From the IMG/VR virus record IMGVR_UViG_3300021256_000003, positions 128,001 to 175,026 of that record: a DNA stretch of 47,026 bases. One strand, written 5' to 3'. A program made the translations under genes and the position numbers. The number at the start of each line of letters is the position of its first letter. The stretch's first letter is position 1. Shown piece after piece: positions 12,007 through 43,518 of the stretch. Source of the DNA: a virus (lineage: Duplodnaviria > Heunggongvirae > Uroviricota > Caudoviricetes). The notes below the pieces were generated by a model, which was not told where the DNA came from, did no database searches, and was given only the letters and a program-made list of their open reading frames with translations.

Positions 12007-12236
12007 TATTTAACAAGTGTTAAATCTTTTGTACTCCAAGTAGCTTCTTGAAGTTTTCCATCGTTTGAAAACCAGCGACATCTAATTCCACGAAGCTAAG
12101 TATTGGAATATTCATCTTTGTAAAAATTTGTTTCCTTTCTCACCACAATCATAATAGGTTTGTTAGGAACATCTTTGTTTAGAGTTACGACATCTCCAGG
12201 TCTGAAGAATGTCTTATCATCATAGTTTGTTTCCAT
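12006..12236 (-). CDS. YodC/DUF2158-like small protein (76 aa, 1 TAG)
   Basis: FRPGDVVTL...PIMIV...IRCRWF...GKLQEATW..KDL pattern. Confidence 0.65.
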
Positions 12237-12816
12237 TCTTAATGTTGTTTTTTCTATCTGTTAAACCTTCATTTATTACACACATAACACGTTGTTCGTG
12301 AACAAGACGAAATCCAGTATTATAGAATGGAACAGTTATATCAGCTTTTGTGGGATACATAATTAAGTCACCAGGTTTAACAAATTCACAAGTAGGACCA
12401 ACCTCTACAACACTAGCGACAGTTACAAAAGACTCTTCTTCGTGCCACTTTCCATCCTCTTCCGATTTATATTGAGGAGCAAATCCATTAGTAATAAGTA
12501 AACCACTATCAGTTTTCTTAATCCGTTGGAACGGATTTTCTTTAAAAGGTTCTACTAATATATATGCGTAGACAGGCATAATTTCAAGACCATTTAATTT
12601 ATCTGATACCTTTTCAGCAAACTCTTCCATTTGTTTAGAGTGTTCATCAAATCTTTTAGTAAAAGTATCAACTTGTTCATTAAATCTGTCTCTATCTTTT
12701 GCTTTCTTTTCATTCAATACTGTTTCTCCATTAGTACCTAAAATAATTTCAGCATTAGGATTTTCTTTAATTGCAAGTTTTTCTTGCTCACTTAACAAAC
12801 CATTTTTCATAATCAT
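12220..12816 (-). CDS. GroES/Cpn10-like co-chaperonin with N-terminal extension
   Basis: IMPVYAYILVEP...SGLLI...VVEVGPTCEFVKPGDLIMY...LVHEQRVMCVI. Confidence 0.75.
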   Translation of the reverse strand: MIMKNGLLSEQEKLAIKENPNAEIILGTNGETVLNEKKAKDRDRFNEQVDTFTKRFDEHSKQMEEFAEKVSDKLNGLEIMPVYAYILVEPFKENPFQRIKKTDSGLLITNGFAPQYKSEEDGKWHEEESFVTVASVVEVGPTCEFVKPGDLIMYPTKADITVPFYNTGFRLVHEQRVMCVINEGLTDRKNNIKNGNKL

Positions 12817-18949: not shown

Positions 18950-19192
18950 TCATAGTCTAGTAGATAAATTATTTAATGCGTCTAAAAAATCTATACACAG
19001 TTGTTCATTTTCTCTCCCTGCCTCTTTAAACCAAGCTACATCAGATACAACATGCTGTAGGTCTTCAATAAGAGTTTTTACTACTGCATCTCCGCCTTTA
19101 TATTTATCAAAAAATAATTCTGGAGTACAAAGTACAGGAGTTTTTACTAAGTGTCTTGCACTTTTTTCATTATACATTTTTTCAAGATTCAT
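18950..19192 (-). CDS. Hypothetical protein
   Basis: 80 aa ORF in minus-strand operon. Confidence 0.6.
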   Translation of the reverse strand: MNLEKMYNEKSARHLVKTPVLCTPELFFDKYKGGDAVVKTLIEDLQHVVSDVAWFKEAGRENEQLCIDFLDALNNLSTRL

Positions 19193-19207
19193 ATATCATA
19201 TATTTTT

Positions 19208-20005
19208 TTATATTTGCTGTTTTTTATAACATGTAAATCCTTGGCATCTTTTTTGTCTGCCTGCAAGAATGTTGCTTAAGTTACTTCGCACACTTTCTAC
19301 GGAAGCTCCTAAACCACAAATTGAATTAATATAAATGGCAGCCCCTTTAATAGTTGGGAATTCAAGCTCTTTTCCATTTGGAGAGATTAATACTATTATA
19401 TTGTGATTCTCTTTAACAACTTTATTAATTAATGAATTTCTATATGAAAGTTGCTTTCTAGCTTCTATTACTCCTACTTCTGATACTTTGTCCATAATTT
19501 CCTTTTTAACTGACTCTGGTATCTCTTGAGAAGAAGGATTAACTGACATTTGATGATTTTTACACCCATAATTTTCAGTTTGACTATGACAATTTGGACA
19601 TAAGATTTGTAAATTTTCCAATCTATTGTCAGTATGTATACCATTAATATGATGAAGTTCAAAATTTAATGGCATTCCTTGCCATTCTGTTATTTTACAC
19701 TTCTCACATTTTTCTTCTTTTAATCCTTCTTTTATAAGACGACTTCTAAGTCGACTACTCGGATAATCAGAATTTTCAATTAAAATATCATCTAGAGGAG
19801 TTGTTTCTTTATGTGTTACATTTTGAATAGAATTCTTTATAAAAGAAATTTGTAACTTCGTCATTCTGTCCTTTATAATCTAATAAGCCCATGAATTCCC
19901 TTTCACGGAATAGTTCAACTTTCTCAGCACATCTGCTGTTGATGTAGAACTTGTAATTAATTCAATAAACTGACTATCGTCAAGCATTTCTATTTTATTA
20001 ACCAT
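19208..20005 (-). CDS. HNH homing endonuclease (265 aa, 1 in-frame TAG), C-terminal DNA-binding-like domain
   Basis: CEKC...ELHHINGIHTDNRLENLQILCPNCH; ATG 20005 in frame with ORF 19208..19864 across one TAG. Confidence 0.85.
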
Positions 20006-20024
20006 CGTTATATAATATTAAATT

Positions 20025-20098
20025 TGGCGGTGGTACCCGGATTCGGACCGGGACCATTAGTTTTAGAGACTAAGGCACTACCATTATGCAATACCACA
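20025..20098 (-). tRNA. Amber suppressor tRNA, anticodon CUA (Gln-type)
   Basis: TGTGGTA/TACCACC acceptor, D arm GCAT/GTGC, stem TTAGT-CT CTA AA-ACTAA, T arm, G73, encoded CCA. Confidence 0.92.
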
Positions 20099-22697: not shown

Positions 22698-23336
22698 ATG
22701 GCACAGACCGTTCGCGACACTATCAACAATGAGAAGTTTGCTAACCTCCACATCGACGAGGCCAACCTGCAGCAAGTGCTGAATCTGTTGGTCGACCAAC
22801 GTAAGAAGGCTGATCCCAACTTCGACGCTGCCAATCTTGACTTGGTGGCTCTCCTCGATGACGCTATCAAACGTCGCCGCTTCATGCCGACACCTGATGG
22901 CACCTACACCATCAAGGAAGCCTTCGTCTTCTTTTCCGTCTACGAGGACAGAAATGGGCTGTCGCAGCTCTCTGTCCATCGTGCTTATCGCATCACCGAC
23001 GGTAAGTCTGACTACCAGTTGGAGTGCACCAACTGGGGACAAGAGAGGACACGCTACACCATCAAGGGCAATCCTGTGGTGCTGCCATTCGTTGTTAGCA
23101 ACAACAACCTGATAAAGATGTCAGGTAACGGTGCTGCCAGCGAGTGGATACAGCAGACAGTTCCGCAGTTGGTTGGAGCGACTATCAAGGTCACCAACCA
23201 CAATCAGCCTATCGACAAATACACGCCGAAAGAAGGCCGTGATTTTCAATCTGTCCAAGTAAGACAGGTTGATATCGTCCGTCTGAAGGATGAGCAGGCT
23301 GATGAACCTGCGTCCACGTGGAAGAAACTTGAGTAG
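22698..23336 (+). CDS. GC-rich early hypothetical protein; TAG apparently used as stop
   Basis: 212 aa ORF followed directly by a terminator. Confidence 0.8.
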   Translation: MAQTVRDTINNEKFANLHIDEANLQQVLNLLVDQRKKADPNFDAANLDLVALLDDAIKRRRFMPTPDGTYTIKEAFVFFSVYEDRNGLSQLSVHRAYRITDGKSDYQLECTNWGQERTRYTIKGNPVVLPFVVSNNNLIKMSGNGAASEWIQQTVPQLVGATIKVTNHNQPIDKYTPKEGRDFQSVQVRQVDIVRLKDEQADEPASTWKKLE

Positions 23337-23350
23337 TCTGCTATCTACCG

Positions 23351-23386
23351 ACCTCGCTGCCTACGGGTGGCGAGGTTTTCTTTTTT
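23351..23386 (+). terminator. Intrinsic terminator
   Basis: ACCTCGCTGCC-TACG-GGTGGCGAGGT then T-tract. Confidence 0.8.
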
Positions 23387-23930
23387 CCAACAAGATAGTT
23401 TAGTCTCATTAACTAGTCACATTAATATTCAATCCAGCACAATAACTAGTCAAATGTATATAAGAATTAGAATTAGAGCAGTGTATGTATACTGCGAATA
23501 CGGTCGAGTATAAATCGTATTAATTAAATTCGCGTAAAAATCTTATGCGTTAATAGGTAGAATATCTTGGAACTTTCATTCCGTCAAGAGAAGGTAACTA
23601 TTTAACACATAAGTCGCCTCCAGATCTGCAGTTGGAGGTGTATAGATATAAAAAGGAATGAACGGAGTAATCTCACGAAATTTAGAGATAATCGTGCAAC
23701 TCACACGTTACTGTTATTAATAACTTTTATAGAATAAACGGCTATAAGAGGTTGATACAGTAGACAAGTCAGCCGTTTATTGATTTGTCTTAACTCTTAT
23801 GGTGAATTGGAGAATTTGCATCGCGACATAAGAGTTTTTCTTCTAGACACGTAGAGAATATTGTCTAGAGGAACTATTCCCTCTACATGAGGGGGGGGAG
23901 ATCATAAAAATTTAAAAAAATAAATTAAAA

Positions 23931-27981: not shown

Positions 27982-28284
27982 ATGAAAGAATTAATTGAAA
28001 TGATCATCGGCAATATTTCTCAGAATAAGTTTATTGAAACAATCAATGAACTTTGCACTATAGAGCCTAGTGACTCTGAAAAAGAAGTTGAAGAAAAGCG
28101 TCAGAAACTGCTTGCTCTTATGATGATGCGTGTTAAAACGGATCTGCAGAAAGAAGCTGAAAATGACCCGAAACTTGCCGAAAGCCTCAAAATGGCAAAA
28201 ACCGCAGCTGAAAACGCTGAAAATGAACGTAATGCGGACGACTTTGTCCGTAATGTTAAAGAGCTTTTCAAAAAGGAGGAATAA
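27982..28284 (+). CDS. Hypothetical helical protein
   Basis: 100 aa ORF. Confidence 0.7.
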   Translation: MKELIEMIIGNISQNKFIETINELCTIEPSDSEKEVEEKRQKLLALMMMRVKTDLQKEAENDPKLAESLKMAKTAAENAENERNADDFVRNVKELFKKEE

Positions 28285-28688
28285 TGGGTTATACTCGGAT
28301 TACTCCTGATAAACTTACTGAACAGCTTAATACTATTCGGCAAGTTGTTGAAAAGAATCCCGCGCTTAACTCTAAAAGATTTACTCGCACTGAATTATTA
28401 GAACTTCTGGGAAAGAACGGACTTAATGTAAATCCTGTTCTTTGGTCTTGCTTGAAAGAAGTTTTTCATTGCGAGAAAATCAATGGAGTGAATACTTGGA
28501 CATTTCAAAGAAATGACCGAGGAACTCTTCCTATCTATAAGGGAGTGATTGAGTCAGTTGTTATGAATTATCGTAAGAAAATGAATGACAAGAAATCTCA
28601 ATCACTCTCTGTGGATTCTGCTATCAAACTTCTTAAAAGTAAAGGCTACAAAATTCAGAAGCCGGTTATATCTTATAAGGAGATTTAG
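28284..28688 (+). CDS. Hypothetical protein; TAG apparently used as stop
   Basis: 134 aa ORF ending AIKLLKSKGYKI.KP...YKEI*, next ATG 2 nt later. Confidence 0.75.
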   Translation: MGYTRITPDKLTEQLNTIRQVVEKNPALNSKRFTRTELLELLGKNGLNVNPVLWSCLKEVFHCEKINGVNTWTFQRNDRGTLPIYKGVIESVVMNYRKKMNDKKSQSLSVDSAIKLLKSKGYKIQKPVISYKEI

Positions 28689-28690
28689 TT

Positions 28691-28966
28691 ATGCAACCTA
28701 GTAAAAATCTGAATGATACTTTGGATTCTGTAAAGGAAATCTCTGAATTGTATAAAACCAAAACTATCTGTTTTTCTTGTGATGATGAAGTATTAGGAGC
28801 ATGTCATACTCTTGATACTATTGAGGACTTTGAACGTATGTCTCATGCGATTTATACATTTCTTGAAAGTTCGCTCCATGGGGATTCTACTCAACACAAC
28901 ATTTCAGGAGTTTTGATTAATGCAGTCATGAATTTCTTGACAAAGCATCCAGAAATACTCTTCTAA
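28691..28966 (+). CDS. Hypothetical protein
   Basis: 91 aa ORF. Confidence 0.65.
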   Translation: MQPSKNLNDTLDSVKEISELYKTKTICFSCDDEVLGACHTLDTIEDFERMSHAIYTFLESSLHGDSTQHNISGVLINAVMNFLTKHPEILF

Positions 28967-29438: not shown

Positions 29439-29819
29439 ATGTTAGAATTATTTAAATCTGATTTATAGATATGTGAAGAATATTCAAAATTTATTAATAA
29501 TCGATATTTCAGAAAAGCATGGTGGAATGTAGGTTTTACATCTAAAAGAGAATAGGAATTACATTATGAAAATACTCCTCGTCCTTGTATAGTGATGAGG
29601 CCAGTACGTAATACTTTTCCAGCATATCTTGCTTATTATATTTTAAAGCATAAATTAAATGCTTATGATGCTAGGTAGTATGTTAAAGGATGTATAAACT
29701 CTGCGAAAAAGAAATATCCAACAAAAGCTCTAAAAAATTGGATTAGAAGTGAAGTTGATAGGTATTTACAATTATATACTAATTCAACTTATCCTCAATT
29801 ATATAAACATTTTAAATGA
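29439..29819 (+). CDS. Hypothetical protein (126 aa, 3 TAG=Gln)
   Basis: Open only under TAG=Gln; ATGA overlap with next gene. Confidence 0.65.
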
Positions 29820-31805: not shown

Positions 31806-32081
31806 ATGCAAGTTAATGTTGGCCAAATAGAAGACCAAGAGGTAATTTATATCCCTGAAAGAGATGTAATCTTTTGTAAGAATACAGTTGTTCCCTACAA
31901 TGTTATTCGTCTTCTCCTGAAAAGTTCTTCAAGTCGTGAAGAACTCCCTGAAAAAAATCTAGTAATTACTAAAAATAGTTCTAATGTTTCACTTGGTTGT
32001 TTAAATACAACTATGTCTAACATTTGGACTATTGATAAAAATATTAAAAACATAAAATCCTCATGGAAGAAAAGAAATTAA
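31806..32081 (+). CDS. Hypothetical protein coupled to the AAA ATPase
   Basis: 91 aa ORF. Confidence 0.65.
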   Translation: MQVNVGQIEDQEVIYIPERDVIFCKNTVVPYNVIRLLLKSSSSREELPEKNLVITKNSSNVSLGCLNTTMSNIWTIDKNIKNIKSSWKKRN

Positions 32082-33502
32082 TTGGTAGAACTTCTCTCAT
32101 AAAGCGGAGAACAAACGCTTATGAACAGGAGTCTCGAAGAAAGTTTGTCGAGATTATGAATAATCCTCAGTTTACTTATAGTGACTGTTTGGATTACATC
32201 GACACTGAAATTAAGCAAGGTAAGCGTATGGCTCGCTTTGATTATAAACTCCGTTGTTTCAAAAATGATGGAATTTATCAGGTGAGTCAGGCTATCAACA
32301 AAGTCTTTGGTGCTGTGAACAGCATGGAAGATAAGAGTCCTTCGGGAGATAGCGATATCCAGACTGTAGATATCTGTCTCTCGGATGGCACTCGTACCAA
32401 GGCTCCTTATGGCAAAATTGCCTTGAATGGACTTGGTGAAGACGCTTATATTGACATTAACTATGATACTGATGAGCATATGCTTATCGTAACAGGTAAA
32501 TGTCAGATGCGTTATACTACAATCATTGACGACATTATGACTCAAGCTAATGAACTTCTTAAGACAAATTCGATCTATAAGAATCAAGCTCTTGAGATCA
32601 CTGATATCAATGAACCAAAGGTTCTTGATTTGTCTAATATTGACAATCAGCTGATGGTATTAAGCGACAGCACTAAATATGCGCTTCGCCCCATTGAAGC
32701 TCGCCTTCTTCAACCTAAAAACTGTGTTAATAAAGGCATTCCTCTCAAGTATGGAGCACTTCTTGAAGGAAATTATGGAACTGGTAAGAGCTTAATTGCA
32801 TTCAAACTGGCAAAGCAGGCTATTGAGAATGGCTGGATGTTTATCTATCTTAAAGATCCAACTCAGCTTGCAGAAGTTCTTCGTATGTCCCAAGTTATTG
32901 ACAAGAGTGGCTGGGGTGTTGTTGTCTTCGTTGAAGACGTTGATCAGGTTACTCGTGGTAACAGAGATGCTGCTATGCAGGATATCCTTAACACGCTCGA
33001 TGGTGGTGATACTAAGGGCATGAATGTCATTAGTCTTTTCACTACTAATCATATTGAGCTTATCGAACCTACTTTCTTGAGAGGTAAGAGAATTGGTTCA
33101 ATTATTTCTCTTGGTAGTCTTGATAAGAAGACTGCTGATGAATTTATCCGCCGTTCGTTTGCAGAAGAGTGTTATGTCATTAAAGACGATCTCACTGAAG
33201 TCTGTGAAATGGTGGAACGTGCCAATATTGTGCCTGCATTCATGGCAGAAATCATTGAATCTGTTAAATCTAATATGATTCTTGATAATGAGTGCGAAGT
33301 CAAGGCAGACTACCTTAAGTATGCTATTAAAGCATATGAGCATCAGGTACAATTGGCTCAAACTAAGAACATGTCAGAGACTGTTGAGCAGACTTTCATA
33401 AAATCAGCACAACAGCTGTTCTGTAAGGATCCCAAAAATTACCCAGCCTTCATCAAAATGATGGAAGATCATTGTGGTGAAGATATTAAAAACTTCCAGT
33501 AA
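32063..33502 (+). CDS. AAA+ ATPase
   Basis: Walker A GNYGTGKS, Walker B VVFVEDVD, LNTLDG, TTNH...LRGKRI. Confidence 0.9.
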   Translation: MEEKKLIGRTSLIKRRTNAYEQESRRKFVEIMNNPQFTYSDCLDYIDTEIKQGKRMARFDYKLRCFKNDGIYQVSQAINKVFGAVNSMEDKSPSGDSDIQTVDICLSDGTRTKAPYGKIALNGLGEDAYIDINYDTDEHMLIVTGKCQMRYTTIIDDIMTQANELLKTNSIYKNQALEITDINEPKVLDLSNIDNQLMVLSDSTKYALRPIEARLLQPKNCVNKGIPLKYGALLEGNYGTGKSLIAFKLAKQAIENGWMFIYLKDPTQLAEVLRMSQVIDKSGWGVVVFVEDVDQVTRGNRDAAMQDILNTLDGGDTKGMNVISLFTTNHIELIEPTFLRGKRIGSIISLGSLDKKTADEFIRRSFAEECYVIKDDLTEVCEMVERANIVPAFMAEIIESVKSNMILDNECEVKADYLKYAIKAYEHQVQLAQTKNMSETVEQTFIKSAQQLFCKDPKNYPAFIKMMEDHCGEDIKNFQ

Positions 33503-33604
33503 TTTTTAACAATTTTTAACTTTGAAGTTGTGGATTCTATATATAATATAGCATATTGAAAATTGATTAATAAGTCCTTCTGCCTGTAAATCAATATGCT
33601 AGGT

Positions 33605-33677
33605 GCGACGTAGGCCGAGCGGCTAAGGTTCCTGCCTTCCAAGCAGGTTTTGGTGAGTTCGACTCTCACACGTCGCT
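33605..33677 (+). tRNA. tRNA-Gly(UCC)
   Basis: GCGACGT/ACGTCGC acceptor, CCTGC-CT TCC AA-GCAGG. Confidence 0.85.
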
Positions 33678-34249
33678 CAAAAGGACATCCTGACAGTCCT
33701 TTATGGTAGTATTTTAGGCGAAATGATTAACCTAAATGAAAATTTCATGTTTTACCAAAGGAAATGTGAAACTACTACTGATTGCTGCATGATATTGATT
33801 AGTTATTTTATTGTTTGTATTGGACAAAAATCATCTTTGGAGGTTGTAAATTACCTATGAACTATCTACGTATTAAACTCAACACATAAAGAATAAGGAG
33901 TTGCTATACGAGAAGAAAATTTTATCGTTAGATATTCTCCTAGTGTCTAACGTATCCGCTTGCTGTAAAGTAATAGGAGAGAATATATCGTTGGTATCAA
34001 TCGAGCTTAGAAAAAAATTCTTCTAGAATTTAATAAATCCCAAATGGTTAGTCCATGCAACTTGATTGCAAGAAATTTAAGCACGGTTTAGGATTTTCCC
34101 ATTAGATTTCCCTATACTAATGATATATTCTTCTTTTGTCTAAAAAGTAATTCGTTGACATTTGTAACGTCAAGAATTATGTATTCTTTTAAGATTCTGA
34201 AACGGTGCTTGTTCACAAAAACAGTTAGAACTTTAGAATACTGAGGACA

Positions 34250-34322
34250 GTACTTCATTAACAAAATTAGTAATGTACCATAGAAATATGGGTCTACAGG
34301 TGCAAATCCTGTATGAGGTACA
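34250..34322 (+). ncRNA. tRNA-like RNA with a GAAA tetraloop instead of an anticodon loop
   Basis: GTACTTCA/TGAGGTAC, CCATA-GAAA-TATGG, ACAGG-TGCAAAT-CCTGT. Confidence 0.6.
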
Positions 34323-34355
34323 ATGGTCTTTAAGTATATCCTGAATACTTAGGTT

Positions 34356-34612
34356 GGCATTATCCATAAATGTACAGGTGTACTAGTAAACCGGAATTGA
34401 CTAGGGTTTATACCAGACCAGAGGTATACTCATTAAACTGGAGCTCTCTCGACGTCCAGATATAGGAGTAGTGATACTCGAGAGTGAGTACCATATGGGA
34501 AGCAGTCCACAGCTCTATATGGTTACAAGGAGGCCTTTCAGTAATGTTTAGGAGTTTTGCTGGGAACTACTTAGAGAAATGCTAAGAAGTAGGTGCGAAT
34601 CCTACTAATGCT
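34356..34612 (+). ncRNA. Large structured RNA closed by a tRNA-like acceptor/T domain
   Basis: GGCATTA/TAATGCT, GTAGG-TGCGAAT-CCTAC, internal helices and a pseudoknot. Confidence 0.5.
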
Positions 34613-34643
34613 CTGGTGGTGGAATGGTAGACACGAGGGACTT

Positions 34644-35436
34644 TAAAGATTAAAAACACTTGTAAATCTTATAACTGGAATTTTCTAATAGAAAGTTATT
34701 AAAGATTTTTAAGTAAAACATTATGTTTCTATTAAATACTCCATTTTTATTTGGTAGACAATGAAATTGTGTATACCTTTCATTATATGAAAAAGGTAAA
34801 TTATACAAAAGAATTGTTGGAGGAAAAAGTGAAAGATTGTTATTCTTTTGCTGAACTCTGCAGGAGATTAGGTTTAAAACCAGAAGGTTCTAATCCGAAA
34901 ACTGTAAGAAAAAAGATGGATGAATTTGGAGTAGATTATTCACATTTTACTGGACAAGGATGGAATACTTATAAACATCCTAAATTTGGTAATGGAATTC
35001 CTTTAGAATCTAGTCTTTGTGAACATAGTTCACTTTCTTCATGGAATGTAAAGAAAAGATTATTTGCTCATAAAATAAAGGAAAATAAATGTGAAAAGTG
35101 CGGACTTACTGAATGGTAGGGTAAGCCACTTGTATGTGAACTACATCATATAAATGGAGATCCCACTGACAATAGGATAGAAAATTTACAAATTTTATGT
35201 CCTAATTGTCATAGTTAGACCGACAATTTTAGAAATAAAAATAGAAACAGGGAGGTAATGAGTGCTCCTGAGGAAACTCAGGAAGTAGAAGCAGGCTAAC
35301 TCGGTGAAAGCTGTAGCCTCCCAAAAAATAAAATACAGTCAACGCCGAACTAATACAAATGCGTAGAGACTATATACCTGCTACCTAAGTCGTAAGATAT
35401 GGTAAAGACATAGTCCAATCGGGAGTAAACCCGATG
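34644..35436 (+). mobile_element. Group I intron (793 nt) with HNH ORF in the P1 loop
   Basis: U before the 5' site, terminal G; core AACTCGGTGAAAGC, CAACGCCGAAC, GTAGAGACT, AAGACATAGTCC; P2 TCCTGAG-GAAA-CTCAGGA. Confidence 0.88.
34787..35299 (+). CDS. Intron-encoded HNH homing endonuclease (170 aa, 2 TAG=Gln)
   Basis: CEKCGLTEW*GKPLVCELHHINGDPTDNRIENLQILCPNCHS*TDN. Confidence 0.88.
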
Positions 35437-35548
35437 AAAATCCCTTGCCCGCAAGGGCGTGTGGGTTCAAGTCCCACCCGGAGTACTAAATCCTACAATA
35501 ATCGATCGTAAAAAGTAGGTAAATACAAGAGTAGCTAACTTGTATTTT

Positions 35549-35625
35549 TACAGAGTAGAGGAATTATTAGACTCAGCTGCACGGAAACTGCAGGTCATTT
35601 GCTGGTGAGAATCCAGCCTCTGTAA
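35549..35625 (+). ncRNA. Atypical tRNA-like RNA (loop CGGAAAC, Phe-like GAA but G33)
   Basis: TACAGAG/CTCTGTA, CTGCA/TGCAG, GCTGG-TGAGAAT-CCAGC. Confidence 0.55.
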
Positions 35626-35707
35626 CTAAATAGTTGTATTACATTAGAAGATTTTATTTAATTCGTTTACTTTCTTCATTATAAATTTCTTCTGATTACA
35701 ACTTGGT

Positions 35708-35770
35708 ATTCCTAAAGAGAAGGCTCTGGAGTAATTACCAGATGATAGGTTCAAGTCCTATCTAGGAATC
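35708..35770 (+). ncRNA. D-armless tRNA-like RNA
   Basis: ATTCCTA/TAGGAAT, TCTGG-8nt-CCAGA, GATAGG-TTCAAGT-CCTATC. Confidence 0.55.
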
Positions 35771-36182
35771 TAACAAAGTCTTACAGGCGCAGCCGTTACT
35801 TGAAGTAATTCAAGGCATTCGATGCGGATAATTGTTTAAATAACCTTGATAGAATAAACAGCAAGGCATATGCTCCTTATTAATGGAATTTTGGTGACAA
35901 TAGCCAGCTAACGAGCTTTAAGGACATGAAGAAAACGGACTTTGTTTTTACAGTACGTAGTTTATGTAATGGGTTTGAGTCGTACAATAAACTATTACAG
36001 ACCTGTAAACGTTAAGACTATAGGAATAAGCATTACTGTACTTATTTAAAAAGAGAAAATCCTGTAGGAGTTTACATCATTGTACAATGTGTTCATTTTT
36101 AAAGGTTTTGATAAAAAGCAAAACTAAAAACATCAGAAATGATAATAAAAGAAGGTTTTAAATTTGTTTTCTTCTTTTACAT

Positions 36183-36254
36183 TGCGGGATAGAGCAGTGG
36201 TAGCTTACCAGGCTCATAATCTGGAGGTCGTGGGTTCGAATCCCTCTCCCGCTA
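36183..36254 (+). tRNA. tRNA-Met(CAU), initiator-like 1-72 mismatch
   Basis: CCAGG-CT CAT AA-TCTGG; TGCGGGA/TCCCGCT. Confidence 0.85.
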
Positions 36255-36309
36255 GAGAATAATGATAGAAACCTCCACGTGGTTATTCTCGGGTAATGCT
36301 AATTCTATC
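36255..36309 (+). ncRNA. Minimal HDV-like (theta) ribozyme at the tRNA 3' end
   Basis: P1 GAGAATA/TATTCTC, P2 GATAGAA/TTCTATC, P3 ACC/GGT, L3 TCCACGT, GG, J4/2 CTAA; G1 directly follows the discriminator. Confidence 0.85.
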
Positions 36310-36407
36310 GTAAAAATAAGTTTAATTTTAAATAGGAATAGAAAAAGTAAAATTAAACTTGATGCAACAAATTAAAGATAAATAAATCGGATTTATTAAT
36401 CCTATTT

Positions 36408-36481
36408 GTCCCTGTAGCTCAGCTGTATAGAGCAGCGGATTTCTAATCCGCGGGTCGTAGGTTAGAATCCTACCAGGGATA
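36408..36481 (+). tRNA. tRNA-Arg(UCU)
   Basis: GCGGA-TT TCT AA-TCCGC; GTCCCTG/CAGGGAT. Confidence 0.88.
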
Positions 36482-36498
36482 CTAGTAACACAAAAGCT

Positions 36499-36966
36499 AT
36501 GAAAAAGTTATTACTTATTTTATCTATTTTATTTAGTTTTAATGCTTATAGTCAAGGATATATTGGAGTTGAGGGAGGATTCAATATTATTAATCGACAA
36601 CCCACTATATCTGTTAAAGCGTTATTACATAGAATAGAATTAAATGTTATTTCTCAACCATTTAGTTTTTCAGATACTAAAGTTTCTAGATTCACTTGTG
36701 TAGGTGGTGGTTATTTATTACCAAAAATGTTTGTTGCCGGTGGTGGAGTTGGTACTATGCAGGAAATTCCAGAAATAATTACTCCTTATGGTGAAAGAGG
36801 TTGGAATGGAACATTAACAGGATGTTTATATTTTAGAAAATATTTTAATTTAAAGAAATCAATAGATATAACTACAAGTCTTACTGCAGTATATAAAGTC
36901 GGAATTATTCTTGGTATAGGATTTTCAGTCGGGTATTTAAAAGAAGAATATCAATATTTAAAATAA
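36499..36966 (+). CDS. Secreted outer-membrane beta-barrel-like protein
   Basis: Signal peptide MKKLLLILSILFSFNAYSQ, Gly/aromatic amphipathic strands. Confidence 0.6.
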   Translation: MKKLLLILSILFSFNAYSQGYIGVEGGFNIINRQPTISVKALLHRIELNVISQPFSFSDTKVSRFTCVGGGYLLPKMFVAGGGVGTMQEIPEIITPYGERGWNGTLTGCLYFRKYFNLKKSIDITTSLTAVYKVGIILGIGFSVGYLKEEYQYLK

Positions 36967-36972
36967 ATTGAA

Positions 36973-37407
36973 ATGGAATATAAAGGGTATACAATTGAGG
37001 ATGTAAGCTGGGTTAATCAGTCTGAATCTATTAGGCAAGATGACGATAATAGTATTGAATTGACTAGAGAAGAACTCAGAAAATATATTTTCTTAATTGA
37101 CGAAAAGGATAAAGAACTTACAAGTTTAGAAATTGAACATACTATTCCAACTATTGAATTTTATGGACAAGGATATGAATATAATCCTAATGGAGCAGAT
37201 CAAGAGCCTGAAAGTTATATTAGTTTAAACTGGAAACGTCGCGAAACATCTGAAGAAGCTTTTAAACGTATTGAAAAACGTAAAAAGGAAATTGAAAAGG
37301 AGATAAAGAACAATATTGCTAAAGAAAACGCTCGAAAACAGGCTGAAAAAATCGAAGCTGATCGTATGATTCGACATCTTAGATCATTAGGATATGAAGT
37401 CATATAA
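36973..37407 (+). CDS. Hypothetical protein with C-terminal coiled coil
   Basis: 144 aa ORF. Confidence 0.7.
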   Translation: MEYKGYTIEDVSWVNQSESIRQDDDNSIELTREELRKYIFLIDEKDKELTSLEIEHTIPTIEFYGQGYEYNPNGADQEPESYISLNWKRRETSEEAFKRIEKRKKEIEKEIKNNIAKENARKQAEKIEADRMIRHLRSLGYEVI

Positions 37408-37508
37408 CTTATATAGTTTATGGAAGAAGAATATATAATTTTTCAAACTTATCTTGATAAAGATAATGTATTTAGATATAGAATTATTTCTAGTTAAATC
37501 TAAATAAT

Positions 37509-37579
37509 TGTCCTATGGTGTAATGGTAGCACATCAGATTTTGGTTCTGCTTGTCCAGGTTCGAATCCTGGTAGGACAA
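37509..37579 (+). tRNA. tRNA-Gln(UUG)
   Basis: TGTCCTA/TAGGACA, TCAGA-TT TTG GT-TCTGC. Confidence 0.88.
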
Positions 37580-37586
37580 CAAAATA

Positions 37587-37761
37587 TAGTTCTATAGCAT
37601 AAACGGAAATGCGCATTTGATGAAGAATTTAATTATAGAAATATAATTATTAATTTGAAAAGATTGGCAATAGTTTTTTATGGTAGTGTATCTACTTGCT
37701 GCAATCGAAGTAAGTTCTTAACATGAATGAGATTAAAAGGTTCGATTCCTTTTAGAACTAC
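37587..37761 (+). ncRNA. tRNA-like RNA with about 100-nt insertion replacing the anticodon loop
   Basis: TAGTTCTA/TAGAACTA, D arm GCAT/ATGC, stem CATTT/GAATG, T arm AAAGG-TTCGATT-CCTTT. Confidence 0.65.
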
Positions 37762-37798
37762 AAAGGAAAATAATGTTAAACAATAAAAGATTAATACC

Positions 37799-38710
37799 AT
37801 GTGCTTATATGCAAAAGATTCAAAGCCTCGTGTGGCTACTAAAGACATTAAGGTCTATAAACACGTAAAATATGTTGATGTATCTTACAGAACAGCAATT
37901 ACTCCGCATCAAGAGACTACTTTTGAACTTGATAAAGAATTTATTCCAAAAGCAAAAGTAGCTAAAGGTACTACTACTTTTAAGTCTGGAGTGATTCATG
38001 CGTGTCTGTGGCCAGACGCTGACAGAGGGACTTGTCTTGAAGCATATATTCCCAAAGGTACTAATTATTGGATTGGTATTGATGGTTGTACTGTATGTGC
38101 TGAGAAACTCTTTGTTACAAGTAATGAAGTAGAAGGACCTGCATGTATGGATGTAGACTTAGCAAGAGAAATACTTGCAGATGTACCTACAGTTGAAGGG
38201 GTTACTATTGGTGAGTTTACTTCCGATGACTATATTGTTGTTGGATTTTATCAAAATGGTAAACCAATGATTGCTGATATAGCTAATATGATTCAAAGTG
38301 TTGCTATTGACAGAGAATATGATAGCAAAATTGATGAGTATTATAGCTATAATGAAGCTGCAAAAGACTTCAACGGAATATCCCATTGTGCAAAACACCC
38401 AAAAAGTGAAAGATATGAAGCGTTTAACGCAGTATCCAGACTTAGTCCCAAGCATTATATTCCTGCATGTGGAGAAATGAGAACTTTGTTATCTAACATT
38501 ATCTATATTGCAGCAAGTTGTGCTTTGAAGAATATACCGATTTCTATTTCTATGGAAGGTTGGTATTGGACGTCCTCGGGGGGCTCGTTGTACTGCAGTT
38601 GGTGCTGCTACATCCGCTCGGAGGGTGTCTACCAGGGCTGGGACCACAAGGTCTGTCGGGGCCGGGTCGTTCCCTTTGTTGCTCCTAATTCTATTTCTCA
38701 AAAAGAATGA
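37799..38710 (+). CDS. Two-domain protein with C-terminal C-type-lectin-like DGR variable region
   Basis: YIPACGE...WYWTSS...SW....G......K.....V.PF; abrupt GC-rich, A-poor segment 38560-38682. Confidence 0.7.
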   Translation: MCLYAKDSKPRVATKDIKVYKHVKYVDVSYRTAITPHQETTFELDKEFIPKAKVAKGTTTFKSGVIHACLWPDADRGTCLEAYIPKGTNYWIGIDGCTVCAEKLFVTSNEVEGPACMDVDLAREILADVPTVEGVTIGEFTSDDYIVVGFYQNGKPMIADIANMIQSVAIDREYDSKIDEYYSYNEAAKDFNGISHCAKHPKSERYEAFNAVSRLSPKHYIPACGEMRTLLSNIIYIAASCALKNIPISISMEGWYWTSSGGSLYCSWCCYIRSEGVYQGWDHKVCRGRVVPFVAPNSISQKE

Positions 38711-38933
38711 ATAAATTTGAACTTCACATAAGAAAATGGTTTAGAATATTCCTAATATCGACATTGGAAAAAGTTATGAAAAAATTAAATTAAATACACT
38801 TAATTGTTAAACCGCAAGTCGGGAAGTTGTTAAAAGCAACAATATTTAATTATGGGGAGATTTTATATAAATCAGTGCAATTAAGTGAAAAGAGTTTTAA
38901 GGCTTGTACTCTTGGCGGAAAACAAACCTATTT

Positions 38934-39006
38934 GCATCTTTAGCTCAGTAGGTTTAGAGCCATCTATTTTTAGGATGAGAGTTGGGTTCGAGTCCCAGAG
39001 GATGCA
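38934..39006 (+). tRNA. Atypical tRNA, anticodon UUU (Lys?) or pseudo-tRNA
   Basis: GCATCTT/AGGATGC, normal D/T arms, irregular anticodon arm CATCT-ATTTTTA-GGATG. Confidence 0.55.
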
Positions 39007-39086
39007 CAAAATCTATATGCTCCTATATTATAGAGCAATATCTCCTAAGTTCTTAGTGCAAATACAAAATCAAATTATATAATACA

Positions 39087-39344
39087 ATGGAAACAGAAAT
39101 TAAGGAATCTCTTTCTAATGAAGGTCTGATTAAAGCACCTATTTTCAGAAGAGAATCAAGAAAGCAAAATGTATGTCTTTGTGATAAATGTCCAGAGCGT
39201 TACCATGATTATTGGTGCGATACTGAAAGATGCGGGTTTGCTAAAGGAGTACAATTGCATGGACTATATTTTAGTGGTTATTATATTCCATTTAGAACAT
39301 GTCCAAAAAATGGAGAAGTCATTATTAAACAAGAAAATAATTAA
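39087..39344 (+). CDS. Cys-rich hypothetical protein
   Basis: 85 aa ORF. Confidence 0.6.
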   Translation: METEIKESLSNEGLIKAPIFRRESRKQNVCLCDKCPERYHDYWCDTERCGFAKGVQLHGLYFSGYYIPFRTCPKNGEVIIKQENN

Positions 39345-39351
39345 AATATTT

Positions 39352-39660
39352 ATGAAAATACCTATATATAATGAAGACACAATCCTTGAAGCAATCGAAG
39401 AAGAAGGGTTGGCAGGATGTGCATACGGATATAAAACTCCATTTTGCATCTTTATCTTTATAGAAGGTATGGAAAAGGATGAAATTTGGGAGAAATTTCC
39501 AACACCATTAATTGGTTTAGAAAATGCTCATTATGATATGAATACTTTAGAGCCTGTAAAATATTTTATGATTGATAAAGGCCCGTCTTTTGAACCTAGA
39601 ACTGATAGTAATGTATCTGGGTTAGAAGAGAGTATAGAATATTTTAATAAAGAATTTTAA
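39352..39660 (+). CDS. Hypothetical protein (MKIPIYNED...)
   Basis: Likely true start within ORF 39169..39660. Confidence 0.6.
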   Translation: MKIPIYNEDTILEAIEEEGLAGCAYGYKTPFCIFIFIEGMEKDEIWEKFPTPLIGLENAHYDMNTLEPVKYFMIDKGPSFEPRTDSNVSGLEESIEYFNKEF

Positions 39661-39841
39661 TAATGGATAAACGTTCAGATGCAATCGGCGATAAAGGTTG
39701 GCGAGGAAAGTGAGGTTGCGATAAACACAAAAACACTGTATGAAATAAAGCAGAGGTGCCTTTACCATTAAATTATATCTGTAAAATGATATAGCCTTTA
39801 TAATCCATTATTTTTTATAGTTTGTACTTAACAAACTAATT

Positions 39842-39914
39842 GCTCCTATGGTGAAATGGCTTATCACGTCGGACTGTTAATCCGTTATTTCTGGTTCGAA
39901 TCCAGATGGGAGCG
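39842..39914 (+). tRNA. tRNA-Asn(GUU)
   Basis: TCGGA-CT GTT AA-TCCGT; GCTCCTA/TGGGAGC. Confidence 0.88.
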
Positions 39915-39952
39915 CAATTTAATTTAAGAAACAACAAAACAGTACATAAATT

Positions 39953-40876
39953 ATGAAAGAATCAATTTTCTTTGCTAAACCTGGTGAAAAAGGTTTGAAT
40001 GAAACTAGTGCTGCTCATCTCTGTGCACTAGCAAACCAAATAGAGCTTGAAAACGAAACAGCACTCAATGAAATTTGTTTTGTAAATACTGAAGTCGCAG
40101 TTGTTGGCAATGCTCAAAATCTTCCAACCCAAGATGGAATTAAAGAAGACGAGTTTGATCTTATTGAAACTCGTCTAACTCGGATTGCTAAAATGCATCG
40201 TTTTATTGCGTGGTTTGCTGAAGCTAGAAAAGCTCTTGAAGCAGAGAAAGCTCAAGTAAGAGCACTTACTGTTGAAAAGTGGTGCAAACAACAGGGTATT
40301 GAATATCCAACATATCCTGAGCAGCCTAGTAAAGTAAATACTAGTGAATATGACGATGTTCTTAAAACTCTTAACGTCAAAGAGTATGAAGAGTATCTTG
40401 GTTTACAAGCAACTGCTGCAGTGTTTGGGAAATTTATTCATCCTGATCGGCCGATGGACACTGCACGAAAAGCTCTTCATTATGCTTTAAGTCATCCGTA
40501 TAAAACTCGTGGAGAAGGACGTGATACCACAGTTTATCATTCTACACCTTCTATTTCTGCACAGAAAGTTGATGCTAAGTTTGCTGTTCTGCAAAAGCTA
40601 TATAGGGAATATGAACAAAGATTAAATCGACTGAAAGCAGAAATTCGCAAGAAGCAGACAGCAATCAATGTGGAAGAAAACCACCAAAGTCATCTTCTTG
40701 AGGAACAGTTCCTTAAAGAATATGAAGTGTATAGAACTCGCGTCGAAGAGCTAAACCGTCAGTTCCGTGATTGGTTACTTGCTGAAAACGAGAGACTATC
40801 TAAAGTCAAGTTAGCTATTCCAAGCTCACTTGAAACAACAGTTGATTATCTCAATAAACTTGCTGATAATAACTAA
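39953..40876 (+). CDS. Long helical/coiled-coil hypothetical protein
   Basis: 307 aa ORF. Confidence 0.8.
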   Translation: MKESIFFAKPGEKGLNETSAAHLCALANQIELENETALNEICFVNTEVAVVGNAQNLPTQDGIKEDEFDLIETRLTRIAKMHRFIAWFAEARKALEAEKAQVRALTVEKWCKQQGIEYPTYPEQPSKVNTSEYDDVLKTLNVKEYEEYLGLQATAAVFGKFIHPDRPMDTARKALHYALSHPYKTRGEGRDTTVYHSTPSISAQKVDAKFAVLQKLYREYEQRLNRLKAEIRKKQTAINVEENHQSHLLEEQFLKEYEVYRTRVEELNRQFRDWLLAENERLSKVKLAIPSSLETTVDYLNKLADNN

Positions 40877-41146
40877 TAGGTTGTAGAACTTGGACCATAT
40901 TAAATCCTAATCTACATTTGTGTAAATAAGATTAAACACCTTACTATGTCTTGAAAACATATAATTTTGGATAAAATTTAGTGGACTCCATGTCTACGCA
41001 TACTTGGCTACATCAGCAAATATAATAACTTTTTATTTGGGATTCAGTCTCAGATTAAGGCTCAGTTGCTGGTGTAGGTCCTAGTTTTAAACTTTGTCTA
41101 CACTGTTTAATCTTATTTATAACTATTTTTACTCTTTATAGAGTGA

Positions 41147-41190
41147 AGGGAATTAGTTGGTATATAGTGGTTCAAATCCACAATTCCCTC
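41147..41190 (+). ncRNA. tRNA minihelix-like element
   Basis: AGGGAATT/AATTCCCT plus GTGG-TTCAAAT-CCAC with only a 12-nt linker. Confidence 0.5.
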
Positions 41191-41204
41191 TAAAAAATAA
41201 AACT

Positions 41205-41450
41205 ATGATTGAATTTATTAAGAAATTAATTTGCAGAAAACCGCAGCAATTGAGATGCCTTAAGTGTAAATATTTTACTTGGTGGGATGGAGATTATTGT
41301 TGTTTTCAACAAATGCAAATTTTATGCCCATCTAAAGATGGTTATATTAGTAAACAAGATTACAATAAACTTTGTAATAAATATTTATTTTGTCGAAATT
41401 ATAAACGAAGTAAACAAAATACAATCGAAGAAAGTAAAATTGTAAAATGA
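41205..41450 (+). CDS. Cys-rich hypothetical protein
   Basis: MIEFIKK...CLKC..F.WWDGDYCC. Confidence 0.6.
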   Translation: MIEFIKKLICRKPQQLRCLKCKYFTWWDGDYCCFQQMQILCPSKDGYISKQDYNKLCNKYLFCRNYKRSKQNTIEESKIVK

Positions 41451-41836
41451 TAACTGATGATTTATTTATAGGAGCATGGGTTTCTTGTTATGGTGAAATT
41501 GGCACTGTAGCAATGTTAAATGAAGAGACTTGTGCTATATGGAAAAATGGAGATATGAGTAAAGAAGAAAATTACATTGCCACCGCAGCAATGGCTCCAT
41601 TATTTCCAGGAGATTTAAATCCCATTCCTTTAACTCTGGATATCTTAGAAAAGAATGGATTTAAATATAAAGAATCTATCGATAGATGGTGTTTTAAAAG
41701 TACTCAATTTGGACTTTATAAAATAGAAGATTGTTTTATAGGAGTTGTTTGTGGAATGTATCGATATGTTAAATATGTTCATGAATTACAACAACTTCTT
41801 AAATTAGCAACAATAGATTATAAAATAATACTATAA
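41447..41836 (+). CDS. Hypothetical protein, paralog of 30781..31146
   Basis: PIPLTLDILEKNGF...YVHELQ. Confidence 0.7.
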   Translation: MITDDLFIGAWVSCYGEIGTVAMLNEETCAIWKNGDMSKEENYIATAAMAPLFPGDLNPIPLTLDILEKNGFKYKESIDRWCFKSTQFGLYKIEDCFIGVVCGMYRYVKYVHELQQLLKLATIDYKIIL

Positions 41837-42012
41837 TGGACGATAATTTTCAAAAGAATATAGAACCAATTGATGAGAAAGAGGAAATGTTGAAGAAATT
41901 CTTAGGCTTGTATAAATGCAAAACATTGTATTGGAGTGGCCCAAAACCGATTTTTTCTGATAATGACAATAATAATTCAGAAGCTACAACTGATTCTCCT
42001 CTAAATTTTTAA
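41836..42012 (+). CDS. Small hypothetical protein (58 aa)
   Basis: TAATG-coupled ORF. Confidence 0.45.
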   Translation: MDDNFQKNIEPIDEKEEMLKKFLGLYKCKTLYWSGPKPIFSDNDNNNSEATTDSPLNF

Positions 42013-42020
42013 TATTTAAT

Positions 42021-42611
42021 GGAAAGTTGGCAGAGTTGGTTTAATGCAACGGTCTTGAAGCCAATTCGAGTGTTATGGCGAGAAATCCCATAGCAGAAGC
42101 ATCCCTAATTCGGTGAAAATCCTTCTCAAACTAAAGAAGAAACAGATAATAGCGCGATATTAGCGACTGTGACTGTTTACACTAACCAATAATGTGTAAG
42201 GACAACGCCGAGCTAAATTGAGAATATGCCTTTTACGTATAAATTTTCGGATTTAGTAAATCGTAAGAGATGGTTAGCCTACAGTTCTCATAAATGTGTA
42301 CAGACTATAGAGGTGCAGCCTAAGTTGAAATTTATGTTTATTAAGAAATACTGGTTGAAAGATACCGTAATAATTCAAAGAGAATAGAATAGTCTTTTTA
42401 AACATATCTTGCAAGAATTTCAATATGGTTATAACATAGTCGAGACTACAATAAAATTATCAGATTCAAGATAGTAAATAACCGTGGAATTCGGTCGCGT
42501 GTGTATAATCAAAGCTCGCGGAAAAGATGATTTTAGCTATGGTAACATAGTGTAGCAAGGAAAACCGTCGGTCGTTAATTCGGCCCGAGAGTTCGAATCT
42601 CTCACTTTCCA
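42021..42611 (+). tRNA. tRNA-Ser(UGA), split by a group I intron (exons 42021-42056, 42560-42611)
   Basis: Exons rejoin to ACGGT-CT TGA AA-ACCGT; GGAAAGT/ACTTTCC; long variable arm. Confidence 0.88.
42057..42559 (+). mobile_element. Group I intron (503 nt, no ORF)
   Basis: P1 CTTGAA/TTCGAG with U.G at the splice site; core AATTCGGTGAAA, CAACGCCGAGC, GTACAGACT, AACATAGTCG; terminal G. Confidence 0.88.
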
Positions 42612-42688
42612 CATTTTCTAAGTGCATCCTCCATTGAGGAAGGCAATCCTGGATTGTATAAGCAAGATCTTATGCAAACTAGGCTTTT

Positions 42689-42777
42689 GGAGGCATAAGC
42701 ATAGTTGGTACTGCAGCAGATTGCTAATCTGTTACCCGACGTAAGTTGGGTCGTAGGTTCGAGTCCTACTGCCTCCG
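42689..42777 (+). tRNA. tRNA-Ser(GCU)
   Basis: GCAGA-TT GCT AA-TCTGT, long variable arm, G73. Confidence 0.88.
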
Positions 42778-42957
42778 CATTGAAGAGAGAGCTGAATATC
42801 TTTAATCCCGTGTTGCTGGGTAACGAGCCGTTGAAGCTAAGCAGGAGGCGACATAGTCTACTATGGAAAACTTAATGTACATATGGTTTTCCTGGTAGGT
42901 CTTCTATAGAGAAAATGTAAGCAGGCAGCAGCTTGCCGAACACTAAAGCTATGAAAT

Positions 42958-43029
42958 GGGCCGTGTAGTGTAATGGTAGCACGTCTCCTTTGCACGGAGA
43001 CAGAGGGGTTCGAATCCCACATGTGTCCA
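42958..43029 (+). tRNA. tRNA-Ala(UGC), bulged acceptor stem
   Basis: TCTCC-TT TGC AC-GGAGA, G3.U70. Confidence 0.75.
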
Positions 43030-43035
43030 CTATTT

Positions 43036-43109
43036 CCCGTAATAGCTCAGTTGGCTAGAGCGTCCGTCTCATACGCGGAAAGTCGTTGGTTCAAGTCCAT
43101 CTTACGGGA
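43036..43109 (+). tRNA. tRNA with CAU anticodon (Met elongator or Ile2)
   Basis: TCCGT-CT CAT AC-GCGGA; CCCGTAA/TTACGGG. Confidence 0.85.
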
Positions 43110-43131
43110 CTATTTATTAATTTTATCTAAT

Positions 43132-43518
43132 ATGAAATTTTACATTCCTTTTGGTGATTGGTCGAAAGACGGCCATTGTCAGTATGAGAAAGTTTTAGTA
43201 GAAGCTCCAAGTATGGAAGGACTATTAGAAGCAGAAAAGAAGATAAAGGAAAAATATGGTGAAGATTTCTTTGAAGGATTCGCAAATCAATATGAGGATT
43301 GTAATTTGTCAGATTCTGTAAAACAAGCACTAAATGAAAACTGTCATTGTGGACTTACTTTAGAAGATGATTGGTTTTCTTTAGACGATATAATCAAATA
43401 TTTTATCGATTTATTAAATGCATTTAATGCAAATATTACACGTATTGAAGAGTACCCAATGATATGTAATTGGACGTGTCCTGGATTTGAAGACGTTGGT
43501 TATGGTTGTTTTGAATAA
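43132..43518 (+). CDS. Hypothetical protein (MKFYIPFGDWSKDGH...)
   Basis: True start lies downstream of the tRNAs, within ORF 42973..43518. Confidence 0.75.
   Translation: MKFYIPFGDWSKDGHCQYEKVLVEAPSMEGLLEAEKKIKEKYGEDFFEGFANQYEDCNLSDSVKQALNENCHCGLTLEDDWFSLDDIIKYFIDLLNAFNANITRIEEYPMICNWTCPGFEDVGYGCFE

Follow-up and report, generated by a model that had tools for sequence, protein, structure and literature searches.

A group I intron in the tRNA-Leu(UAA) gene of a crAss-like phage carries an HNH nuclease gene with in-frame TAG codons

The interrupted tRNA-Leu(UAA) gene and its intron

The DNA analyzed here (hereafter the window; 47,026 nucleotides) comprises bases 128001-175026 of the complete 175,026-bp genome, with terminal repeats, of a tailed phage (Caudoviricetes; IMG/VR record IMGVR_UViG_3300021256_000003). 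It contains, at window positions 34610-35485, a class-II tRNA gene that is interrupted after U34 by a 793-nt insert (34644-35436). This insert has the features of a group I intron and harbors an HNH homing endonuclease gene (34787-35299) whose open reading frame (ORF) stays open only when the stop codon TAG is read through; all of these elements lie on the plus strand. The 5' exon (34610-34643) provides the 5' strand of the acceptor, the D arm, the 5' half of the anticodon stem and C32 U33 U34, and it ends in AGGGACUU. The 3' exon (35437-35485) starts with AAAAUCCCU and provides A35 A36 A37 A38, the 3' half of the anticodon stem, a long variable arm, the T arm, the 3' strand of the acceptor and A73. 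Acceptor and anticodon stems pair between the two exons, and joining them yields a 7-nt loop, CUUAAAA, with the anticodon UAA and the discriminator A73. An uninterrupted gene identical to the joined exons is called tRNA-Leu(taa) by ARAGORN.

The 5' exon closes with AGGGA-CUU, the intron with GAUG, and the 3' exon opens with AAAA-UCCCU. When the rules for such junctions are combined (a U before the 5' splice site, a G as the last intron base, here the omega-G at position 35436, and a loop of seven bases), one junction only is left, CUU/AAAA, and with it the UAA anticodon. ARAGORN in its default mode and Rfam at its gathering scores find nothing at 34610-35485; once its intron option is enabled, ARAGORN reports an interrupted class-II tRNA spanning 34610-35486. 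The junction that the program places would be read as Ser(UGA), but we rejected it since it would need an 8- or 9-base loop and group I rules place the junction elsewhere. The insertion lies between loop positions 3 and 4 (U34/A35) of tRNA-Leu(UAA), which is the definition of 'Leu.3Ug', the name given to the classical Nostoc trnL intron, written CUU/a...g/AAAA (Williams, 2020; 10.1101/2020.01.27.920355).

In a local Rfam search, the group I model RF00028 matches positions 35247-35435 end to end with 39.5 bits (E 2.5e-8); the default search missed the intron because this value is below the 50-bit cut-off. The orthologous intron of a related phage (locus L004) reaches 53.7 bits and exceeds the curated threshold. 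The Rfam alignment sets the conserved P1 G of the model at the internal guide GAGU (35260-35263), which would form the 3' strand of P1 by pairing with the exon sequence ACUU, so that U34643 stands opposite G35260 as a wobble. This U-G pair and the terminal G35436 are kept in all relatives. In place of the intron-side half of P1, a local hairpin immediately follows the splice site; it covaries between relatives, as judged by eye. The guide is followed by the P2 hairpin with its GAAA tetraloop (35267-35282; double changes at all six pairs) and, placed by the Rfam alignment and by covariation, the 5' strand of P3 (35290-35295), the J3/4 segment CUAA and the 5' strand of P4 (35301-35306). Next come P5 (35310-35314 with 35335-35339), which was read in the window alone, the alignment of the relatives being poor there, and the 3' strand of P4 (35343-35348). 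The 5' strand of P7 (35368-35373), the 3' strand of P3 (35377-35382), P8 (35384-35402), the 3' strand of P7 (35410-35415) and a P9 hairpin (35419-35434), in which the relatives pair but align poorly, complete the core. P8 holds the 11-nt GAAA-receptor motif CCUAAG...UAUGG, and this motif together with the GAAA loop in L2 represents the arrangement of Azoarcus-type IC3 introns.

Covariation was assessed in a MAFFT alignment of ten orthologues (A2), in which 34 pairs from P2, P3, P4, P7, outer P8, the variable arm and the T arm were counted. The partners are paired in 97.9% of the cells, and 17 pairs have changed on both sides; none of 500 shuffles reached any of the five covariation measures, and slid controls were 32-45% paired. 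P2, P3 and P4 covary, as do the variable and T arms of the exons, and P7 is invariant and paired. On the strength of sequence and covariation, the insert is a group I intron of IC3 look. The first-pass annotation of this DNA had described a group I intron in a phage tRNA-Leu(UAA) gene, inserted after U34 at the site of the cyanobacterial and plastid trnL(UAA) intron, and had named the RF00028 search as a check. The split tRNA with its CUU/AAAA exons, the match to RF00028 (beneath the cut-off in the window, over it in the orthologue) and the covarying core bear out this description, including the site and the mature loop.

The HNH nuclease gene and TAG as a sense codon

The P1 loop, delimited by the 5' splice site and the guide GAGU, accommodates the ORF of the nuclease (170 codons with TAG as Gln), of which the final 13 sense codons extend over P1', P2 and the P3 5' strand. 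The TAA stop codon of the ORF (35297-35299) is at the same time the conserved UAA of J3/4; the first-pass annotation was thus right in locating an HNH ORF in L1 that runs into the 5' part of the ribozyme core. The deduced protein matches PHROG 10822 (E 6e-47) and Pfam HNH_3 (26.2 bits; cut-off 24.8) and stays just under the cut-off for Pfam HNH (20.5 bits; cut-off 21.4); a PDB sequence search returned no significant relative. It possesses a CxxC motif (CEKC, residues 102-105), the catalytic HH pair (residues 119-120) and a CPNCH motif (residues 139-143). One in-frame TAG is codon 111 (35117-35119; TEW-TAG-G), between the first CxxC and HH, and the other is codon 144 (35216-35218; CHS-TAG-T), right after CPNCH. 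If the stop at codon 111 is not suppressed, an inactive stub of 110 residues should consequently result that does not reach the catalytic HH.

A free-standing paralogous HNH gene (19208-20005, minus strand; 39% identical) carries ordinary Gln codons at both positions (TEWQG and CHSQT), just as the first reading of the sequence had held, and has its only TAG, an internal one, at codon 42. Site 144 is encoded by CAA or CAG in ten of the 11 orthologue rows and by CGG in the remaining one, and site 111 is occupied by Gln (4), Leu (6) or Arg (1). Downstream of the first TAG, the ratio of nonsynonymous to synonymous changes (pN/pS), calculated against six orthologues, is 0.09-0.17. The segment 34739-35466, including both TAG codons, is identical in contigs from a DNA run and from RNA libraries of two studies (2013 and 2017).

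TerL and the portal protein of this rumen phage match crAss-like families and crAss-like phage records, and the phage agrees with the 'Zeta' crAss-like group of Yutin et al. (2021) in size, tRNA load, introns and recoding. GenBank phages yielded no close relative of the window; the match at the DNA level was limited to the HNH domain. In the block of late genes, TAG accounts for 349 of 1220 Gln-type codons (29%; 13.5 per 1000 codons), compared with 11 of 557 outside this block (2%; 0.73 per 1000 codons). The late genes, assigned to genetic code 15, are open only with TAG as sense, TerL with nine in-frame TAGs being an example. Most of the 11 non-late TAGs are not internal sense codons: some are located ahead of the likely true start (NrdD and a radical SAM enzyme), and others, at the end of genes for a phosphoesterase, a ligase and a GIY-YIG nuclease, have a close back-up stop and look like real stops. 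Internal non-late TAGs occur in four places, namely a free-standing HNH gene with late-type codon use that lies in an early region between tRNA-Thr and tRNA-Asp (L069; genome positions 19125-19736; TAG at codons 17 and 60), the free-standing paralogue, the intron gene and an ORF at window positions 29439-29819. Five TAGs among the 638 codons of the HNH genes stand against about seven among some 14,600 other non-late codons (Fisher p 8e-5). Apart from the HNH genes, the ORF at 29439-29819 (126 codons; three internal TAGs at codons 10, 39 and 80; no Pfam match) is alone among the non-late ORFs in having several internal TAGs. Examples of early genes apparently terminated by TAG are located at genome positions 6961-7665, 11896-12717 and 31813-32739, and at window positions 22698-23513 and 28284-28712; in most early genes of this kind, a second stop codon (TAA or TGA) follows 0-15 codons later, this distance being 57 codons for window 22698-23513. 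The pattern of back-up stops fits TAG acting as a stop early and as sense late.

An amber suppressor, tRNA(CUA), is encoded at window positions 20025-20098 (minus strand). Its D loop is that of the phage tRNA-Gln, and it has G2-C71, G10, a weak 1:72 pair and G73, which we take to be identity elements of glutaminyl-tRNA synthetase (GlnRS). When tRNA(CUA) was aligned globally with every phage tRNA, tRNA-Gln did not stand out; the resemblance resides in the D loop, the 1:72 pair and G73. In TerL alignments, TAG stands on Gln at several conserved columns and on a mixture of Q/E/K at variable positions. The assignment of TAG to Gln, proposed earlier from the paralogue, therefore gains from the codons found at site 144 and from the likeness of tRNA(CUA) to tRNA-Gln, and can be regarded as well supported, although not proven.

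The leader of the intron contains the octamer TGGTAGAC (34752-34759, plus strand), which repeats the D-loop octamer of the exon (34625-34632) and supplies the 5' strand of a hairpin ahead of the nuclease start codon. It has three matches in the window versus 0.66 expected, and it is kept in most orthologous introns; in two of them (L010/L011), it forms a long perfect hairpin that directly follows the splice site. We considered the octamer as a general promoter motif and rejected it: its sites are the exon, the intron leader and one unrelated place. A scan for sigma-70-type promoters gave hits no more frequent than in shuffles. The nuclease start codon lies in or beside a small hairpin in most relatives (window 34770-34810; same place in L002-L015), the sequences of which differ. 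This recalls the translational masking of the intron nuclease genes of phage T4; such hairpins in AT-rich RNA may also be due to chance.

Distribution among relatives and a link to the host

A protein-guided scan of IMG/VR detected the nuclease gene at 65-75% identity in about 15 contigs. In at least 11 relatives (L002-L009, L013, L015 and L045), it is likewise borne by this intron, inserted at the identical position of tRNA-Leu(UAA), and the stems of their tRNAs differ and compensate. In a comparison of TerL proteins, the intron-bearing relatives form one clade that is 43-52% identical to the TerL of the window; its members G004, G006, G011, G012 and G013 read TAG as sense, and G005 and G007 read TGA as sense. 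Equally close relatives possess an uninterrupted tRNA-Leu(UAA) gene, three of them reading TAG (G414, G415, G416) and two reading TGA (G417, G423) as sense. The intron-less genes of L090/L108 equal the exons of the intron-bearing L004 in their 5' half and acceptor stem. Since relatives within the clade have the same tRNA gene without the intron, the element is or was mobile. The nuclease gene is frameshifted in L021 and has lost its N-terminal part through a deletion in L045; a homing element typically leaves such a combination of presence/absence polymorphism and gene decay.

The use of recoded stop codons varies within the family. TAG makes up two of the four Gln codons of the gene in the window; L011 has a TAG at site 144 (CHSqT), L010 has two in the tail, and in the TGA-recoded phage L007/L008 all three Trp codons are TGA. 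No recoded stops are present in L002, L004/L005 and L015 (TAG phages) or in L003 (TGA phage), zero counts that carry little weight as each orthologue has just 2-5 Gln codons. The survey of TAG in related intron HNH genes, which the first-pass annotation had put forward, thus gives a mixed picture: the use of recoded stops recurs in L010, L011 and, in the other code, L007/L008, but fails to appear in L002, L003, L004/L005 and L015. Because the TAG-recoded phages G004, G006 and G011 and the TGA-recoded phage G005 lack recoded stops in this gene, dependence on TAG is a trait of the lineage and not of the family. The same nuclease gene uses TGA as Trp in the sister phage L007/L008 and TAG as Gln in the window. 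Dependence on a recoded stop implies that the recoded copy works only in phages sharing that code; on this sequence comparison, a mobile gene can become locked to the code of its carrier. Further observations on the relatives concern a transfer-messenger RNA gene (tmRNA; RF00023, 66 bits) at L003:1815-2352, and an abiF RNA motif (RF03085, 50 bits, above the cut-off) just 5' of the intron-bearing tRNA-Leu gene at L010:2780-2817 and L021:2594-2631.

We compared contigs of three metatranscriptome runs and one DNA run with window positions 33400-43400; contig depth is unable to rank expression in these data. The exact joint of 34643 to 35437 is present in one of the RNA runs (X3). As evidence of splicing it was rejected: the flanks of the contig are the 3' end of one tRNA-Gly and the start of the next, and since they match a Gly-Leu-Gly operon that the DNA run holds as well, the joint is bacterial. 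The joined exons of the phage are in fact identical (83/83) to the tRNA-Leu(UAA) of three metagenome-assembled genomes (MAGs) of rumen Bacteroidales (RUG13410, 'bacterium P3' and Tb.RUG.126; L196, L207 and L208), where the gene is part of a Gly-Leu-Gly-Lys tRNA operon, and this identity stops exactly at the borders of the tRNA. The phage tRNA-Gln (window 37509-37580) is 99% identical to that of one MAG, the other phage tRNAs reach 75-89%, and the exons of other intron-bearing phages are 42-89% identical to the same bacterial set. Collectively, these values are likely to point to the host lineage, and they suggest a recent capture or conversion of the tRNA. The putative host hence carries a perfect intron-less site. 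A search with the intron DNA of 401 genomes from the order of the putative host did not find it, which is no proof of absence.

The phage contains further candidate introns. A second split class-II tRNA gene, for tRNA-Ser(UGA), is located at window positions 42021-42612 and has an intron of about 505 nt after U34 (CUU/GAAA). This intron has a compact textbook P1 (CUU|GAA...UUCGAG) and no long ORF; its J3/4-P4 and P4' strings resemble those of the Leu intron, and it is covered by RNA-library contigs. A third match to RF00028 (39.1 bits; genome 36364-36589; L001; L070:16364-17533) adjoins a fragment of an AAA_24 ATPase gene (genome 35934-36410), is followed by a GIY-YIG/NUMOD nuclease gene at 36652-37533, and looks like an intron in a protein gene as reported for crAss-like phages. 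With its intron option, ARAGORN makes many split-tRNA calls in tRNA-dense loci. Most of these were rejected as false pairings of neighboring tRNAs; Rfam found no group I core in ten such loci at E 0.001, in a run that also missed the true intron of L003, large-batch cmscan being insensitive here. As standard tRNA finders miss genes split by introns, the tRNA sets of phages are undercounted.

Mechanism, alternatives and known systems

We interpret the locus, with a probability of roughly 0.75, as a mobile group I intron at U34/A35 of tRNA-Leu(UAA) whose nuclease is made in full only when tRNA(CUA) suppresses TAG. The precursor RNA would fold into P1, formed by the exon ACUU and the guide GAGU, and into P2-P9, with the GAAA loop of L2 docking on the receptor in P8, and the intron would leave by two transesterifications to give a leucine tRNA. 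Without suppression, translation should end at codon 110, ahead of the catalytic HH; by our own reasoning, ribosomes would then halt about 140 nt short of the guide, so that P1'-P3 could stay folded. The full-length nuclease presumably cuts the intron-less tRNA-Leu(UAA) gene of co-infecting relatives, which would then copy the intron in.

Several observations weigh against this interpretation. P1 is just 4 bp long, invariant and devoid of a paired intron-side half; P6 was not made out, and inserts of 60-100 nt are found at its place in L003, L007 and L013; the RF00028 score of the window's own intron (39.5 bits) is beneath the 50-bit cut-off; the sole exon-exon joint has the flanks of a bacterial Gly-Leu-Gly operon and occurs in the DNA run; and TAG also falls on some conserved Glu columns of TerL. 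The short P1, the indistinct P6 and the low Rfam score could mean that the ribozyme is defective or protein-dependent and that the insert does not splice, in which case the phage tRNA-Leu would be broken and the identical tRNA of the host would suffice. Against this stand the core helices, J3/4, J8/7, U-1, omega-G and the tetraloop-receptor pair, all kept and covarying, and the exons of the relatives, which stay foldable; we therefore consider a non-splicing insert very improbable. Scarcely better placed is the idea that the TAG codons are nonsense mutations in a decaying gene and that the intron is a splicing passenger. Decay does occur in the family (the frameshift in L021 and the truncation in L045), but in the window both stops are TAG, a codon read as sense 349 times in late genes, and both occupy Gln positions, there is neither a frameshift nor another stop, the HNH and zinc-binding residues downstream are intact at a pN/pS of 0.09-0.17, and two studies separated by four years contain the allele in unaltered form.

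A different question is what purpose, if any, the TAG codons serve in a mobile intron with a suppression-dependent nuclease. In the first-pass annotation, the code switch was assumed to serve the element as a means of restricting homing to late infection. As an adaptive timer, the TAG codons would have been selected to hold the nuclease back until the late suppressor appears, with the by-product that ribosomes are kept off the ribozyme core during maturation of the tRNA. This part of the claim agrees with the TAG map, in which all three HNH genes carry internal TAGs amid TAG-free genes (p 8e-5), with the writing of all three Trp codons as TGA in L007/L008, a second and independent recoding, with the position of the start codon within a hairpin in most relatives, and with the same pattern published for another phage clade (Borges et al., 2021). 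It is not borne out by G004, G006, G011 (TAG) and G005 (TGA), which keep the gene without recoded stops; moreover, the counts are small (2-5 Gln codons per gene), and any gene dispensable early would drift likewise, drift predicting the same TAG map. Because recoded stops are sporadic among the orthologues, adaptation is unproven. We lean toward the view that dependence on TAG is merely tolerated in a gene not needed early, and we regard a selected timer as possible but rather doubtful. Only slightly more credible than a decayed nuclease gene is an extension to the host, according to which the putative nuclease would target the host chromosome too, nuclease-driven repair would have led the phage to capture its exons from the host gene or to have them converted by it, and the TAG gate would postpone both the cutting of the host tRNA gene and the entry of ribosomes into the core until late. 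The exon identity names a host lineage and raises the testable question of whether the host is cut.

Each part of this element is of a known kind. The tRNA-Ile intron of Azoarcus, an IC3 intron, has a compact core in which the GAAA loop of L2 docks on an 11-nt receptor in P8. The phage intron resembles it in having GAAA in L2 and CCUAAG...UAUGG in P8; the Azoarcus intron differs in its tRNA and loop position, in lacking an ORF and in its bacterial host. The classical trnL intron is about 250-300 nt long and is not known to carry an ORF. With this bacterial and plastid intron (Kuhsel et al., 1990), the phage intron shares the gene, the insertion point and the mature loop, together with an IC3-like core, U-1 and omega-G. 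It is set apart by its phage host, its length of 793 nt and the HNH gene in its P1 loop; we liken the two by site, loop and core look. An endonuclease of another family, I-Ssp6803I, belongs to the PD-(D/E)xK and not to the HNH nucleases. According to the account given in PMC3984707, it is encoded by the tRNA-fMet intron of Synechocystis PCC 6803 (Bonocora and Shub, 2001), likewise an anticodon-loop group I intron with a homing endonuclease aimed at the anticodon region; the host there is a bacterium with the standard code.

Among phages, free-standing homing endonucleases such as SegB of T4 reside in tRNA clusters (PMC2330249). SegB is comparable as a nuclease driving the inheritance of a tRNA region, and the genome studied here also has free-standing HNH genes beside tRNAs; SegB is a GIY-YIG enzyme encoded outside any intron, in contrast to the intron-borne HNH nuclease of the window. 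All phage group I introns known to Hausner et al. (2014; PMC3984707) were located in protein genes, despite the many tRNA genes of phages, and the survey of Williams (2020) covers bacteria only. The papers on Zeta crAss-like phages that we consulted do not mention tRNA introns. The literature that we searched yielded no printed example of a phage tRNA interrupted by a group I intron, and the sole report of phage tRNA introns in it is that on the Lak megaphages, whose authors called theirs the first and 'enigmatic' (Devoto et al., 2019; PMC6784885). These too interrupt phage tRNA genes, but they were not assigned to group I, nor was a nuclease gene described for them. The combination of these known parts in a phage tRNA gene is thus one for which we found no printed report, and it offers a clear case of the ribozyme of the classical trnL site living and moving in phages.

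The closest parallel with respect to the recoded stops is provided by the 'Agate' phages, in which the early region encodes a group I intron endonuclease that prefers the recoded stop codon and for which a delay to the late phase was proposed (Borges et al., 2021; 10.1101/2021.08.26.457843). Since that proposal was printed for TGA, the timing inferred by the first-pass annotation amounts to a known idea applied to a new case. In Agate, TGA is read as Trp, the intron is reportedly excised from an mRNA, and the phages belong to another clade; in the window, TAG is read as Gln, the intron resides in a tRNA gene, and the phage is crAss-like. The same nuclease gene exists in versions in which TAG is a sense codon, in which TGA is one and in which neither is, and the phage intron lends itself to a compact test of the existing idea that the recoding of stop codons sets the time of gene expression and binds a mobile element to phages with a common code.

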